Positions 32,024-57,834 of a DNA stretch of 64,000 bases are shown here, piece by piece. The DNA lies in the NCBI RefSeq assembly GCF_056746865.1, contig NZ_CM163382.1. The stretch is one strand, 5' to 3'. Position 1 is the first letter of the stretch. The number at the start of each line of letters is the position of its first letter. Below the pieces are notes generated by a model. The model saw nothing but the letters and a program-made list of their open reading frames with translations. It was not told the origin of the DNA and ran no database searches. Position numbers and translations under genes: made by a program.

Positions 32024-32263
32024 TTAAAATCACAAAGCAAGAAATTATAAGTGAACTGATATTTATTATCATTTGAAATAAATTTAACTTAAGCGACAAT
32101 TATTTGTGACGTTCATTGCAGAAAATAAAAATAACATTATCGTTATAAATTAAAATACATACCGAAATTCGTATAATTTCAGCAGTTGTTATTTAGAATG
32201 ATTAACTTGACCGCAACTGAAGCAAGAATATCAGGATGAAGCTTACCGCCTCATCCTGAATGG

Positions 32264-39853: not shown

Positions 39854-41341
39854 TTATCCGACGCTGTGTTCAAGACTGATGGCGAGGAGTTTTTGTGCTT
39901 CAACGGCAAATTCCAGCGGCAGTTCTGAGAACACGTCTTTGCAGAAACCGTTAACAATCATCGAGATGGCATCTTCTTCGCTGATCCCGCGTTGCAGGCA
40001 GTAAAACAGTTGATCTTCACCAATACGTGATGTTGTTGCCTCGTGCTCCAGTTGTGCGCTGTTATTGCGACATTCGACATACGGGAAGGTATGCGCCCCA
40101 CAATTAGCGCCAATCAGCATTGAGTCGCACTGAGTGAAATTGCGCGCATTGGTTGCCGTCGGCATGATTTTCACTAAGCCGCGATAACTGTTCTGACTAT
40201 GTCCGGCAGAGATCCCTTTCGAGATAATGGTCGATTTAGTGTTTTTACCGATGTGGATCATCTTGGTGCCGGTATCCGCTTGCTGATGACCGCTGGTCAG
40301 CGCCACTGAGTAAAACTCACCAATGGAGTTATCGCCGCGCAAAATACAGCTGGGATATTTCCACGTAATCGCTGACCCGGTTTCTGATTGCGTCCATGAC
40401 ATTTTGCTGTTTTCGCCTTCGCACAAAGCACGCTTGGTGACGAAGTTGAGAATACCGCCGGTGTTGTTATCGCCAGGGAACCAGTTTTGTACCGTGGAAT
40501 ATTTCACCTCGGCGTTTTTATGGATGATGACTTCCACCACCGCCGCGTGTAACTGATAGCTGTCACGCACCGGAGCGGAACAGCCTTCAATGTAGCTGAC
40601 GTAGCTGTCTTCGTCGGCCACCAGAATGGTGCGCTCAAACTGCCCGGTTTTTTCCGCGTTAATGCGAAAATAGGTGGAAAGTTCCATCGGGCAGCGCACG
40701 CCTTTAGGCACATAAATAAACGTACCGTCAGAGGCTACCGCCGCATTAAGTGCGGCAAAGAAGTTGTCATTCCCCGGCACCACGGTGCCGAGATATTTAC
40801 GCACCAGTTCCGGGTGATCGTGGATCGCCTCGCCAAAGGAACAGAAAATAATTCCCTGCTCCGCCAGTTTTTCGCGATAAGTGGTGGCAACCGAAACAGA
40901 GTCGAAAATGGCGTCCACCGCCACCTCTTTGCCTTCCCGCACGGGAACGCCCAACTGCTCAAACGCCGCCTCCACCTCTTTACTTAAAAAGGCGTTCGCG
41001 CCAGTTTGCTGCACCGCGCCGGGTTCAGACGCGCAGTTGTCGTCACAATTACCGCACGATGGTGCTGAGTAGTAGCTGTAATCCTGATAATTCAGCTTGT
41101 CGTAGTGCGCTTTCAACCAGTGCGGTTCTTCCATCTCCAGCCATGCGCGATAGGCGTTGAGACGAAACTCCAGCATCCACTCCGGCTCATTACGCTTCGC
41201 CGAAATTGCGCGCACCACCTCTTCGTTTATCCCCTTTGCCAGCTCATCGGTGGCTAACTGGGTGAAGAATCCTTCTTTATAATTCAGCGGGCCGCCGGTC
41301 CAGGTTTTGACATCGTCAGTTGCTTCAGTATTACGAGACAT
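39854..41341 (-). CDS. sufB: Fe-S cluster scaffold complex protein SufB
   Basis: ORF trimmed to internal ATG ([14 protein letters not shown]...), giving 495 aa. Confidence 0.95.
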
Positions 41342-41349
41342 AGTACCGC

Positions 41350-41718
41350 CTATACCCCAAAGCTTTCGCCACAGCCACATTCATTCTGGGCTTTAGGGTT
41401 GTGAAATTTGAATATCTGATTAAGTCCTTCACGAACGAAATCGACTTCCGTGCCATCAATAAACGGCATCGCTTGCAGCGGGACAAACAGCTTCGCACCG
41501 TCGTGTTCAAACAGCAGATCGTCTTTGTCCGGCTCGCTAACACTGTCGAGCACATAGCCAAAGCCCGCGCAGCCCGTTTGCTTCACGCCTAAGCGCACGC
41601 CGACCATACCCGGCTGCTTTGCCACCAGCTCGCGTATGTGGACAGCGGCTGCGGGTGTCAGCGTTAAGCCCTGCCAGGCGAAATCCTGTGGATTAAAGGT
41701 TCCTGAATGCATGTCCAT
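41350..41718 (-). CDS. sufA: Fe-S cluster A-type carrier SufA
   Basis: 122-aa ORF with C-terminal CGCGESF motif. Confidence 0.95.
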
Positions 41719-41763
41719 CGATTTACCTCACTTCATCGCTTTCAGCGTATAACAGCATGTTAG

Positions 41764-41778
41764 TGATAATGATTATCA
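41764..41778. promoter_or_regulatory. Fur box in the sufA promoter region
   Basis: TGATAATGATTATCA matches the Fur consensus GATAATGATAATCATTATC, about 46 bp upstream of the sufA ATG. Confidence 0.6.
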
Positions 41779-42004
41779 GTTCAACCCAGCAAACGCAGGG
41801 GCTTTACCGTAAAACATGCTTTTTTCTTGCTTTTAATAAGCATAGACCCTGATGTGTGGGTTAACAGGCACGCTAAGAATTAGGTATCTCATTGTTAGAT
41901 AATGATTATTATCTAAGGAGCATTAAGGCTGTGATGAAAAAGAAAAAGTTGTATTGAAAATGACTATTTAAGAGATAGGTAAAAAAGTGCAGCGTTCAGA
42001 AATA

Positions 42005-42113
42005 AGAAAACCCTTAAGTCTGTGCGACACAGGCTTAAGGGTTTCTACCCCATCCGGCGCTTATCTCCGGCACTCTCAGTGGCTTAGCTCTTGAAGGGGC
42101 GATAAGAATAATC
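42005..42113 (-). ncRNA. rydB: Small RNA RydB region (approximate) with its terminator hairpin
   Basis: K-12 rydB lies between sufA and ydiH on the minus strand; a 17-bp near-perfect hairpin (42007-42044) is followed on the minus strand by TTTTCTTATTT; exact 5' end not determinable from sequence. Confidence 0.4.
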
Positions 42114-42266
42114 TCATAAAGCTAAGCCGTCGTTTTAACACAAACTGCGATTAGTATTATTTTTGAACAATATCAGGCGGTTAGATAAGCAGTATTAAGA
42201 AGGTTATCGAACCTGGACGGAGGTTAATCCAGGTCGATTTGGCGAAATTGCAGCATTAAGTCAGGA

Positions 42267-42455
42267 TCAATGCACGCCCAGACGCCAGGCAAAGTAGATT
42301 TCTTCTTTTAATTCAGCAGAAGAGAGAGTAAGCAGGTCAGCAAATTCAAGTTCTAGTTGTTTCAGACGTTTGAGATATTGGGCAGGTGAAAGATTGCTCT
42401 GGTCACGGCGTAAAAATTCAATGGCCAGCTGGGTGGGATCAAGTTGAGTAGACAT
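42267..42455 (-). CDS. ydiH: Small uncharacterised protein (62 aa)
   Basis: ORF trimmed to internal ATG (MSTQLDPTQLAIEFLRRDQS...). Confidence 0.8.
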   Translation of the reverse strand: MSTQLDPTQLAIEFLRRDQSNLSPAQYLKRLKQLELEFADLLTLSSAELKEEIYFAWRLGVH

Positions 42456-42554
42456 AGCATCCTCGCTTTTAGACAAGACCTGCACAGTATACCACCGTTT
42501 ACTGTGCAGATAATAACCAAAAGCAATATGCGTCACACTTTTCTGGTGACAACG

Positions 42555-42965
42555 TCACAAAATGGCGGTCGTTAATCGTGACGAACAGCACAAACGCCCT
42601 TTCTCATCGAAGATTTCAATCTGCCAGACCTGGTGACGCGAACCGAGATGCAACGGTTTGCATACGCCGCGCACCCGCCCTTCTCGTGCCGAGCGGACGT
42701 GGTTAGCATTGATTTCCAGACCAACCACCTTTTGCTCACCTTCGGTACATAAATAACCGGCAACGGAACCGATACTTTCGGCCAGTACCACGGATGCCCC
42801 TCCATGCAGCAACCCGAAAGGCTGCTTTGTCCGCGAGTCTACTGGCATTGTCGCTTCAAGGGTGTCATCACCAATATGTTCAAAGCGAATATCCAGCAAC
42901 CCCACCATGTTTCCTTCACCCATGGCATTCAGTGCTTCCAGGGTGATTTTTCGTTTCCATATCAT
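42555..42965 (-). CDS. menI: 1,4-dihydroxy-2-naphthoyl-CoA hydrolase (hotdog-fold thioesterase)
   Basis: 136-aa ORF, PaaI-like hotdog thioesterase; 4-nt overlap with ydiJ. Confidence 0.9.
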   Translation of the reverse strand: MIWKRKITLEALNAMGEGNMVGLLDIRFEHIGDDTLEATMPVDSRTKQPFGLLHGGASVVLAESIGSVAGYLCTEGEQKVVGLEINANHVRSAREGRVRGVCKPLHLGSRHQVWQIEIFDEKGRLCCSSRLTTAIL

Positions 42966-45900
42966 TTAATAATCTCCAGTAAAGCCTGCACAGGATGGCG
43001 TACCCCCGTGCCTTCGACCCGTTTTACCTGGCTACGGCAGGAATATCCGGTCGCCAGACAGCGATTACGCGGCAGTCGCTGCATCGCCTGATGCCAGGAT
43101 AACTCATAGATCCCGAGCGAATTTTTATGGTTTTTCGCTTCATGTCCGTAAGTCCCTGCCATGCCGCAGCAACCCACGCTGACATTTTCCAGTTTCGCGC
43201 CAAAACGGGCAAATATCGCGGCCCATTGTGCTGGCGCGCCCGGCAAAGCGGTAACTTCGGTACAGTGACCAAAGAAATACCATGATTCACCGCTGACTGT
43301 AGCCACTGGCTGTGAGTCAAGTGCGCTTGCCAGCCATTCATTCGCCAGTAAGACGTTAAACTCGCCACGTTCCTCGCCCAGCGCCAGTTTATATTCATCG
43401 CGATAACAAAGTACCAGCGCCGGATCGACGCCCACCATTGGCATCCCCAGCTTCGCCATACGGTTGAGGAAATCCGCCGTCTTTTTCGCCGTCTTCGCAA
43501 AACGATTAAGAAAGCCTTTGATATGCTGGGCTTTGCCATTTGGCGAAAATGGCAGTAACACAGGCTGGAAACCTAATTTTTCGACCAGACGGACAAAATC
43601 CGCCACCACTTGCGCATCGTAATAGCTGGTAAAGGGGTCCTGCACCACCAACACCGTGCGCGCTTTCTGCTCTGCATTGAGAGCTTCAAGCTGTTCCAGC
43701 GTCATATTCGCCGAGCGATGCCCCACCATTTGTTGTTGCAGCGAGGGGACCGACAGCAGCGGCAAATCAACCATGCCAATATGTTTTTCCGAGAGTTTGC
43801 GCACCAGCGGCTGGTTAATGAAGAAGTTAAAGGTTTTCGGCGCGCGTGCCATCAGCGGTGCGTAGCTCTCGACCGTAGCGACAAGGTGGTCGCGCAGAGG
43901 GCGTAAATAACGGGTGTGATAGAGCTGCAGAAAACGAGAGCGAAACTCCGGCACATCAATTTTGATGGGGCACTGGGTCGAACAAGCTTTACAGGCCAGA
44001 CAGCCCGACATCGCCTCTTTGACTTCGTGGGAGAAGTCATATTCGCCTTTATTCGCATGCCAGCTATTGCGCGTGCGGGCAATTAACGTCCGCAAACTGA
44101 CGCCGGATTCAGGCAGTTCTTGTTCCAGTTTGAGTGGGTCAACGCCGCGATCCGCCAACAAGCGCAGCCATTCACGCACCAGCGTTGCGCGCCCTTTCGG
44201 TGAATGAATCCGGTTCTGGGTGATCTTCATCGACGGACACATCGGACTACGGACATCAAAGTTGAAGCATAAACCGTTGCCGTTACACTCCATCGCACCG
44301 CGCCACTGCTGGCGTACCGCAATGGGGATCTGCCGATCGAATGTACCGCGCTTCACCGCGTCCACTTTCATCATCGGCGCATCGAGACCTTCTGGCGGGC
44401 AAATCTTCCCAGGGTTGAGTCGGTTATGCGGGTCAAATGCCGCTTTCACTTTGCGCAGTTCTGCAAAAAGTTCCTCACCGAAAAACGCCGGGCTGTATTC
44501 AGCGCGAAAACCTTTGCCGTGCTCGCCCCACAACAAGCCACCGTATTTCGCAGTCAGCGCCACCACGTCATCAGAGATTTGCTTCATCAAAATCTCTTGT
44601 TGTGGATCGCACATATCCAGTGCCGGACGGACGTGCAAGACACCTGCGTCGACGTGACCGAACATACCGTAGCTTAAGCCGTGGCTGTCGAGCAGCGCGC
44701 GAAATTCAGCAATATAATCTGCCAGATGTTCCGGCGGTACGCAGGTATCCTCAGCAAACGGAATTGGCTTGGCTGCTCCTTTGGCATTACCGAGCAGGCC
44801 GACAGCTTTTTTGCGCATCGCATAAATACGCTCAACACCTGCCAGCTCACTGCATACCTGCCAGCCGATCACACCTGCTTGCTGACTGGCGATAAGTTCA
44901 TCCAGCCGCGCACAGAGTGCATTTACTCGCTCATCAATCAGCGTCTCATCATCACCAGCAAATTCCACAATGTTCAGCCCGAGCATTTCTTTGTCAGGCA
45001 CATCGGTAATCAACTCGCTGACGGAATGCCAGACAATATCTTCCCGCGCCAGATTCAGCACTTTTGAGTCCACCGTCTCTACCGAAAGCGCCCGCGCCTC
45101 AACCATAAACGGCGCGTTACGCAGCGCGGAGTCAAAAGAGTCATATTTGACGTTCACCAGACGGCGCACTTTAGGCAAGGGCGTAATATCCAGCCGCGCT
45201 TCGGTAATAAAGGCCAGCGTCCCTTCTGAACCCGTCAGAATGCGCGTCAGGTCGAACTCGGTCATCTCATCGTTAAAGACATGACGCAGATCGTAACCGG
45301 TAAGAAAGCGGTTAAGTTTGGGGAAGTTGTCGATGATTAACTGGCGTTGCTGACGGCAACGTTGATAAACCGTGTTATAAATTCGCCCGATTGCGGTATT
45401 GGTTTTACCCAGCGTTTCTGCCAGTTCGACGGGTAAAGATTGCGTATCGAGAATATCGCCCCCCAACAACACCGCGCGTACGCCAAGTACGTGATCTGAC
45501 GTTTTGCCATAGACCAGCGATCCCTGACCGGATGCATCGGTATTGATCATCCCGCCGAGCGTTGCCCGGTTGCTGGTCGAAAGCTCCGGCGCAAAAAAGT
45601 AGCCGAACGGTTTCAGGTACTGATTGAGTTGGTCTTTTATCACCCCGGCCTCAACGCGCACCCAGCCCTCTTCAGGGTTAATTTCGATGATGCGGTTCAT
45701 ATGGCGGGACATATCAACAATAATCCCCTGGTTGAGCGCCTGACCGTTAGTGCCGGTGCCGCCGCCGCGGGGGGTAAAGATCAGCGATGAATAGCGTTCC
45801 TGCGCGGCAAGACGGGCGATCAGCGCCACATCTGCGGTTGAACGCGGAAATACCACCGCATCGGGGAGAAGTTGGTAAATACTGTTGTCGGTCGACATTG

Positions 45901-49153: not shown

Positions 49154-50348
<1,195 letters not shown>

Positions 50349-56922: not shown

Positions 56923-57834
56923 TTATCCAACAAGACTTACCGGTTGAGGAAATTCAGATAAGATTTCTTGTTCCGCAAAACAGTTTTTAAATTGCCTGCG
57001 GTAATCGCTGGGCGAACAGCCGACATGGCGCAAAAACAGTTTGGCAAAGTGATCGACATTTTCATAACCCACACGCCAGGAGATCTCTGCCTGTGATAAT
57101 TCAGTATTAGTGAGTGACCATTTCGCTTCCGTCATACGCCGTTGAATAACATAGTTAATAGGGGAAATGCGATACTCTTTGGTAAATTCATGGCAAATAT
57201 AACTGACGCTGGCACGAAACTTTTTCGATAACTGCTCTAAAGTGATTTTTTCGCGATAGTTATTATTCAGATAGAAAAGAATATCTTTTATCAGAACATC
57301 TTTTTTAATATATCCCTGCTCCGAACGATAAGCATTTTTAAAGTTTTCGTAGTAAAGAATTGCTAACGTATAGGCAAAGGCGTCCCATAACGAAGATGTT
57401 TGGCTATTTTTACTTTGCGGCAAAATCACACTTAGCTCATTAAATAAGGTTTTAATGACTTCTTTTCCCTGCCCTGCGGCAATTACCGGGCAAGAATGCG
57501 GTTGCAGTAGCTGATTTTCCTCAGCCCCCTGAAACTGAAAGCCGTACAGCGCACAAGTACACGTCGTTGCCGGATCGTTAACGTCAGAGGCCACCGCATG
57601 CAGCCTGCCACGTTCTATCACCACAATGTCATCGGCGTGCGCGACATATAACGAAGAATCGATGGTAAACCTTGCTACCCCTTTCTTGACGTAAATCAAC
57701 TCAGTTTCATTGTCATGAACGTGATGTCCGGACTCCCATTTTGGATCATCGCTAAATGCAAAACGTGAAAGCCGTGGCGTTTTACCGGCGACAAACAGCG
57801 TTTCGCTGGCGTTATCAAAACAGCGTTGATACAT
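56923..57834 (-). CDS. ydiP: AraC-family transcriptional regulator
   Basis: 303-aa ORF with N-terminal cupin-like domain and C-terminal AraC HTH; divergent from ydiQRST. Confidence 0.88.
   Translation of the reverse strand: MYQRCFDNASETLFVAGKTPRLSRFAFSDDPKWESGHHVHDNETELIYVKKGVARFTIDSSLYVAHADDIVVIERGRLHAVASDVNDPATTCTCALYGFQFQGAEENQLLQPHSCPVIAAGQGKEVIKTLFNELSVILPQSKNSQTSSLWDAFAYTLAILYYENFKNAYRSEQGYIKKDVLIKDILFYLNNNYREKITLEQLSKKFRASVSYICHEFTKEYRISPINYVIQRRMTEAKWSLTNTELSQAEISWRVGYENVDHFAKLFLRHVGCSPSDYRRQFKNCFAEQEILSEFPQPVSLVG

Follow-up and report, generated by a model that had tools for sequence, protein, structure and literature searches.

A Fur-like dyad upstream of the Escherichia coli suf promoter probably forms the AT-rich arm of its IHF site

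The regulatory region of the suf promoter of E. coli K-12 (PsufA) has been described by Lee 2004, Outten 2004, Lee 2008, and Mettert and Kiley 2014, and it is a model for the integration of iron (Fur), Fe-S status (IscR), and peroxide (OxyR and IHF) signals. OxyR acts at ORE-I, IHF at ORE-II, and Fur/IscR at ORE-III (reviews PMC8300815 and PMC7229158); the binding of IHF in K-12 was reported by Lee 2004 and Outten 2004, as summarised in the same two reviews. In published reporters, the Fur site was mutated from -26 ATA -24 to TAT (Fur*), and the IscR site by deletion of -56 to -51 or by a C-to-G exchange at -50 (PMC12594620). Chen 2007 gave the sufA Fur site a score of 21.3 bits, with its centre at -53 from the ATG, and performed gel shifts at a 10-bit cutoff, in which the oligonucleotides with predicted sites were all shifted with 150 nM Fur (PMC2189734). 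In the following, what is said on binding of Fur, IscR, IHF, and OxyR in K-12 is taken from the literature, and the sequences, scores, conservation, and peak mapping are from our own analysis.

The window, i.e., the whole 64-kb stretch of DNA that was analysed, is from E. coli. Its segment 41350-42540 found matches in 5421 of 5426 genomes and is 100% identical to several complete genomes, e.g., that of strain 118UI. All genes in this part (sufA, sufB onward, rydB, ydiH, menI, and ydiJ) are encoded on the minus strand. sufA, the first gene of sufABCDSE, occupies 41350..41718 with the ATG at 41718 (according to the ORF list and the annotation in K-12 and in 118UI, to which the window is 100% identical in this part), and sufB and the following genes lie below it. 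On the other side, the small RNA gene rydB (42040..42100, minus strand) was recognized by Rfam (RF00118, 81.6 bits) and is also annotated in K-12; an Rfam scan of 41000-43000 revealed nothing besides rydB. The gene order therefore identifies the sufA-rydB intergenic region, and with it the interval 41719-42000, as the PsufA control region. Directly 3' of the Rfam match, an inverted repeat gives a 17-bp hairpin followed by a T-rich tail (42008..42044, minus strand). By its sequence, this hairpin probably is the terminator that closes the upstream rydB unit, and as such it would shield PsufA from transcription arriving from upstream; a simple terminator scan did not call the hairpin at 42008-42044. 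A small plus-strand ORF (MKKKKLY) that follows an AAGGAG at 41916-41921 was dropped because this Shine-Dalgarno sequence is absent in the GTDB E. coli representative. Farther away, the window, which is otherwise 99.99% identical to strain 118UI, has ~1.2 kb of additional DNA inside ydiM (49155-50348), and the 338-amino-acid ORF within this insertion (49186-50202) is presumably an IS5 transposase.

In the sufA sense, the promoter reads TTGAAC-TGATAATCATTATCAC-TAACAT-GCTGTT-A. The -10 hexamer TAACAT (41757..41762, minus strand) is kept across genera in the alignment, and the -35 hexamer TTGAAC (41779..41784, minus strand), separated by a 16-bp spacer, is conserved as well. From the -10/-35 geometry, the start point (+1) would be at 41750 (minus strand), 32 nt upstream of the ATG. 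This assignment is confirmed by the match between the published mutant coordinates and the bases of the window: -26 ATA -24 maps inside the proximal Fur box (element 1), and the base at -50 is C, both as in PMC12594620. The IscR activator site in the ORE-III region is located at 41785..41806 (~-35..-56; position from the literature) and includes this C. The OxyR site (ORE-I) spans 41953..41985 (~-203..-235) and contains the motif ATTG-N7-CTAT-N7-ATAG at 41953-41978 (~-203..-228), which occurs a single time in the 64-kb window, with 0 occurrences expected, and is kept in Escherichia, Citrobacter, and Salmonella in the alignment. An 11-nt inverted repeat, AACAGCATGTT / AACATGCTTTT (41751-41761 and 41813-41823; 91% complementary), flanks the core promoter and the IscR site.

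To score Fur sites, a symmetric 19-bp matrix was rebuilt from 20 K-12 sites with a footprint or gel shift, the site coordinates being taken from Tables 3 and 4 of Chen et al. 2007 (PMC2189734). All 17 sites with a listed centre were found exactly at the predicted coordinate, and the remaining three (fepB, fur, and tonB) were chosen by the best score within their footprints. The rebuilt matrix gives 21.0 bits for sufA, 12.3 for fur, and 11.4 for tonB, compared to 21.3, 12.3, and 11.5 in Chen 2007, and the proven sites score from 11.4 to 28.1 bits. Element 1, TGATAATGATTATCA, at 41764-41778 (-28..-14), is a perfect 7-1-7 Fur box with 0 mismatches (15/15) and 21.0 bits. It lies 46-60 bp upstream of the sufA ATG, where it fills the spacer between TTGAAC and TAACAT and, hence, overlaps the core promoter. 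In a SufA-based scan of the loci of 80 Enterobacteriaceae species, element 1 was present at a fixed position in 79 (77 at -60..-63 from the ATG and 2 more with a shifted start call), and practically all loci show 0-2 mismatches.

Occupation of this box in vivo is documented by the Fur ChIP-exo peak tables of Gao et al. 2023 for nine strains (Dataset 2; PMC10164565), which we mapped onto the genome sequences. In eight strains, the listed peaks flank element 1. The distances from the ATG were mapped for MG1655, CFT073, 042, and Sakai. MG1655 has a peak at 1762473-85 (old coordinates), 63-75 bp upstream of the sufA ATG, under iron-replete conditions only. Two peaks each are found in CFT073 (1920557-69 and 1920591-603, with the ATG at 1920526; 31-43 and 65-77 bp upstream) and in 042 (1933744-56 and 1933777-89, with the ATG at 1933714; 30-42 and 63-75 bp upstream). 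The single peak of Sakai is 63-78 bp upstream, as in MG1655, after correction for an offset of ~133-136 bp of the Sakai coordinates versus the current RefSeq version, which was checked with the ydiE site. Two such peaks are also in the table for KO11FL, and one each in those for W, W3110, and Crooks. The mapped peaks (~30-78 bp upstream) thus bracket element 1. In sum, element 1 is the established Fur operator of PsufA, the one that was mutated in the Fur-blind reporters. The first-pass annotation had taken the interval 41719-42000 for the suf control region and had proposed a strong Fur box over its core promoter; the gene content and the published mutant coordinates bear out the former, and the perfect match at -28..-14 bears out the latter.

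It had also pointed to a second AT-rich dyad ~180 bp upstream of the ATG that resembles the first box, and both sequences are indeed present at 41764-41778 and 41898-41913. The second dyad (element 2), GATAATGATTATTATC, has the structure GATAAT-GATT-ATTATC, corresponds to GATAATAATCATTATC in the sufA sense, and consists of A or T at 13 of 16 bases. It is located at -148..-163, 180-195 bp upstream of the ATG, and the 19-mer scored by the matrix (41895-41913, centre 41904) extends from 177 to 195 bp upstream. With 15.5 bits and 12 of the 14 specified bases, element 2 is the third best match in 64 kb, outscores the proven tonB and fur sites, and is above the cutoff of Chen 2007. Only three positions of the window reach at least 15.5 bits. 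A search with the consensus TGATAATNATTATCA (up to 2 mismatches) likewise gave three matches, compared to 0.21 expected: element 1 with 0 mismatches, 41897-41911 with 2, and 32057-32071. Furthermore, elements 1 and 2 have an exact 12-mer in common, GATAATGATTAT, repeated at a distance of 133 bp. In locally composed random DNA, 15.5 bits would be reached by chance in ~0.3% of 300-bp stretches; if the conserved half of the dyad is taken as given, random arms reach at least 15.5 bits in 0.1-0.4% and at least 13 bits in 0.5-1.1%. The resemblance to a Fur box is, therefore, well above chance.

The third of these matches, at 32055-32073 (ACTGATATTTATTATCATT; 20.1 bits), is located between ydhY and fumD, 256 bp upstream of ydhY. 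It is the predicted cluster "ydhY -255, 19.9 bits" of Chen 2007 (PMC2189734), and ChIP-exo peaks at the ydhY operon/ydhZ were found in KO11FL, 042, and W, with none in the MG1655 list (Gao 2023; PMC10164565). Another match, AACGATAAGCATTTTTAAA (57324-57342; 15.0 bits), lies within the ydiP coding sequence.

The high score raises the question of whether Escherichia acquired in element 2 a true auxiliary Fur operator, which is bound by Fur when iron is plentiful and damps activation by OxyR and IHF. In such a scheme, Fur could compete with IHF or cooperate with the Fur bound at element 1. The rarity of the score, the shared 12-mer, and the gel shifts of Chen 2007, in which every predicted-site oligonucleotide was shifted, speak for it. 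The same model predicts that Fur should shift naked DNA containing element 2, and from the score alone, weak binding of Fur in vitro is plausible. On the other hand, the neighbouring OxyR site region (41953-41971; ATTGAAAATGACTATTTAA) also scores 12.0 bits, above the cutoff of Chen 2007, which indicates how readily AT-rich operator DNA scores on the Fur matrix here and sets a level for false positives. The centre-to-centre distance of 133 bp corresponds to ~12.7 helical turns, so that the two elements are not in phase, and Fur-Fur looping between them was rejected for this reason. Finally, element 2 is centred at -154, away from any convincing promoter.

The last point would change if element 2 itself contributed the -10 (GATAAT) of a second promoter in the sufA sense, ATCACA-16-GATAAT, which Fur would repress directly. 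The promoter-like match on the minus strand (41935..41908) has 9 of 12 positions, and a Fur-like site would overlap its -10 and start point. However, promoter-like matches in the region are at chance level (2 found compared to 1.5 expected), and the -35-like hexamer is not kept within Escherichia, the GTDB E. coli representative having ATAACC. The ChIP-exo tables contain no Fur peak at element 2, and no literature on a second sufA start site was found. A chance-level match that is not conserved makes a very poor candidate, and we rejected this promoter as hardly credible.

More informative is what lies next to the dyad. In a typical IHF site, the core is preceded on its 5' side by an AT-rich arm. 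Element 2 directly abuts, on the 5' side and on the same strand, the IHF core-like sequence TAACAATGAGATA (41885..41897, minus strand; -135..-147), and thus presents this very feature. The core is placed between the OxyR-type motif (41953-41978) and the core promoter (41757-41784), and it has 2 mismatches to WATCAANNNNTTR (TAACAA....ATA). According to Lee et al. 2004, ORE-I reportedly extends from -236 to -196 and ORE-II from -156 to -127. These limits fit the motifs found, and the proximal half of element 2 would hence fall inside ORE-II. The position given to element 2 in the first-pass annotation, i.e., where an IHF site is reported, is therefore in line with the abutting core as well as with ORE-II.

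The comparison with other species, for which the sequences were anchored on the proximal Fur box, reveals how strongly this site is constrained. Among the 75 non-Escherichia species, 45 have a perfect WATCAANNNNTTR core 167-181 bp upstream of the sufA ATG, in register with TAACAATGAGATA, and it is usually the sole perfect match in the 3.4-kb locus. Most genera have the conserved block AAATnCATTATTWATCAAnnnATTGAAC, which is in register with CATTATCTAACAATGAGATA here. Escherichia aligns as GATAATAAYCATTATC-TAACAATGAGATA, with CATTATC as the conserved flank, of which CATTAT is in register with the other genera. In the seven Escherichia sequences, the IHF core varies only at an N position and its constrained positions are invariant; variation at N positions next to specified positions that are fixed across genera marks an IHF site under constraint. 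The sufA IHF site is thus conserved across the Enterobacteriaceae far better than the degenerate E. coli core suggests. Since element 2 lies directly 5' of a position that is a perfect IHF core in 45 of the 75 non-Escherichia species, we take it for the AT-rich arm of the IHF site (ORE-II).

The Fur likeness has a different distribution. Only the distal GATAATAA of the dyad is specific to Escherichia, and this half varies at 3 of 9 positions among the seven sequences. In these seven sequences, distal Fur scores peak at 11.2-15.5 bits, compared to a median best score of 6.9 bits in 73 species outside Escherichia (two loci, L058 and L051, were left out of the median). That every Escherichia sequence exceeds 11 bits again fits an auxiliary Fur site, and the 2 mismatches in the IHF core of E. 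coli speak against the reading as IHF arm. In Escherichia, however, no part of this region varies more than the Fur-like half, which speaks against an auxiliary Fur site. Among the non-Escherichia species, only L051 (Enterobacteriaceae bacterium UBA5654) reaches 13 bits distally: ~183 bp upstream of sufA, AATATTATTTATTATCAAT scores 16.8 bits and overlaps a perfect IHF core. The Fur/IHF resemblance may thus have arisen independently in this species.

A distal half that is absent outside Escherichia and variable within it could also be bound by neither IHF nor Fur, the Fur-like dyad itself then being a functionless product of drift in an AT-rich spacer. However, IHF sites generally have an AT-rich arm on the 5' side of the core, such a score is rare under a compositional null, and GATAATAA is kept in five of the seven Escherichia sequences. 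Drift alone is, in our view, quite improbable.

Part of the variation is a single-nucleotide polymorphism (SNP) inside element 2 that is common in E. coli. At position 41905, the window has A (15.5 bits) and MG1655 has G, which lowers the score of element 2 to 13.0 bits in K-12; a third allele, plus-strand C (11.8 bits), is found in the GTDB E. coli representative. In exact searches with a 71-mer, the window allele was found in 1977 of ~5415 complete E. coli genomes (~36%), O157:H7 included, and the K-12 allele in 3254 of ~5415 (~60%). The base of the window is also present in E. albertii, E. whittamii, and one genome of the cryptic clades, and therefore, judging from seven sequences, the window allele is probably ancestral and the K-12 allele derived. 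Under an auxiliary Fur operator, the A/G exchange could tune the strength of the site between lineages; the presence of three alleles within E. coli speaks against such an operator and fits drift. Because the K-12 reference carries the weaker Fur-like allele, footprints in K-12 do not settle the matter for element 2 in strains of groups B2, D, and E.

The ChIP-exo data cover the stronger allele as well. The peak tables for MG1655, W3110, W, KO11FL, Crooks, CFT073, 042, and Sakai list no Fur peak at element 2 (177-195 bp upstream), and three of these strains, CFT073, 042, and Sakai, carry the 15.5-bit allele of the window, with element 2 at 1920703-1920721 in CFT073 and at 1933891-1933909 in 042. 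The dataset resolves secondary peaks 110-160 bp from the primary one at cirA and yqjH, among others, and therefore, a well-occupied site 133 bp away should appear in the tables. Peak tables can miss weak sites, and weak occupancy of element 2 is compatible with the absence of a peak. In this respect, the first-pass annotation is not supported: its additional Fur or Fur-like site has a distal half found in Escherichia only, lacks a convincing promoter, and is outside the ChIP-exo peaks, which are found only around element 1. Taken together, the position at -154 far from a convincing promoter, the out-of-phase distance of 133 bp, the restriction to one genus, the variable half, and the missing ChIP-exo peak speak against a functional second Fur site. 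Such a site at element 2 is unlikely, and the same goes for the auxiliary operator as a whole.

Hence, we consider it likely that the interval is the known PsufA, with element 2 as the AT-rich arm of its IHF site and the Fur likeness as a by-product. In our model, Fe-Fur on element 1 would block RNA polymerase and the adjacent activator IscR. IHF would bind a site of ~30-35 bp located ~130 bp further upstream, with the core TAACAATGAGATA as its 3' half and element 2 as its 5' arm, and the bending by IHF would let oxidised OxyR at ~-200..-235 contact the polymerase. An AT-rich arm that already carried the conserved CATTATC could have acquired its Fur likeness as a by-product, and element 2 would be at most a weak, normally unoccupied Fur site. 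We infer that, in the strain of the window, the protein in contact with element 2 is IHF and not Fur.

It is imaginable, if very doubtful, that evolution in Escherichia turned the IHF arm into a Fur site of low affinity, with competition between Fur and IHF at -154, and that the A/G exchange at 41905 sets the iron gating of suf induction by OxyR and IHF across lineages. If an auxiliary Fur site did exist, it would illustrate, on a small scale, how cis-regulatory variation in nature affects the gating of stress responses. If our preferred reading of element 2 as IHF arm holds, little changes, with the window carrying a known architecture. In any case, the PsufA architecture in the window is the already known system, the well-studied suf control region of E. 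coli; the only new details are that the Fur-matrix score of the IHF arm depends on the allele and that the IHF core is strongly conserved across the family.

The closest described system is PsufA of K-12, which is the same locus. In the part of the promoter that was compared, 3 bases are different between the window and MG1655. None of them falls into element 1, the -10 and -35 hexamers, the C at -50 in the IscR site, the IHF core, or the OxyR motif; one of the three is the A (G in K-12) inside element 2. Compared to canonical Fur boxes (7-1-7, 9-1-9, the 19-bp consensus, and M9 of Chen 2007), element 1 is a textbook case, being strong and placed on the core promoter. By its matrix score, element 2 falls within the range of the proven sites as well but, unlike canonical boxes, is far upstream (-154), has no 6-bp-shifted partner above 3 bits, is confined to one genus, and has no ChIP-exo peak. 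A precedent for far-upstream Fur boxes that compete with an architectural protein is ftnA, and an auxiliary Fur site at element 2 would work likewise. At ftnA, as Nandal et al. reportedly found in 2010, binding of Fur upstream was demonstrated, and Fur counteracts H-NS and activates transcription. In contrast, element 2 is a candidate Fur site only, and the effect of Fur would be to lower activation. The layout seen here, with an AT-rich arm 5' of the core, is that of IHF bending sites between a distal activator and a promoter; what sets the site in Escherichia apart from typical IHF sites is that the sufA core has 2 mismatches and that the arm happens to be palindromic and Fur-like.
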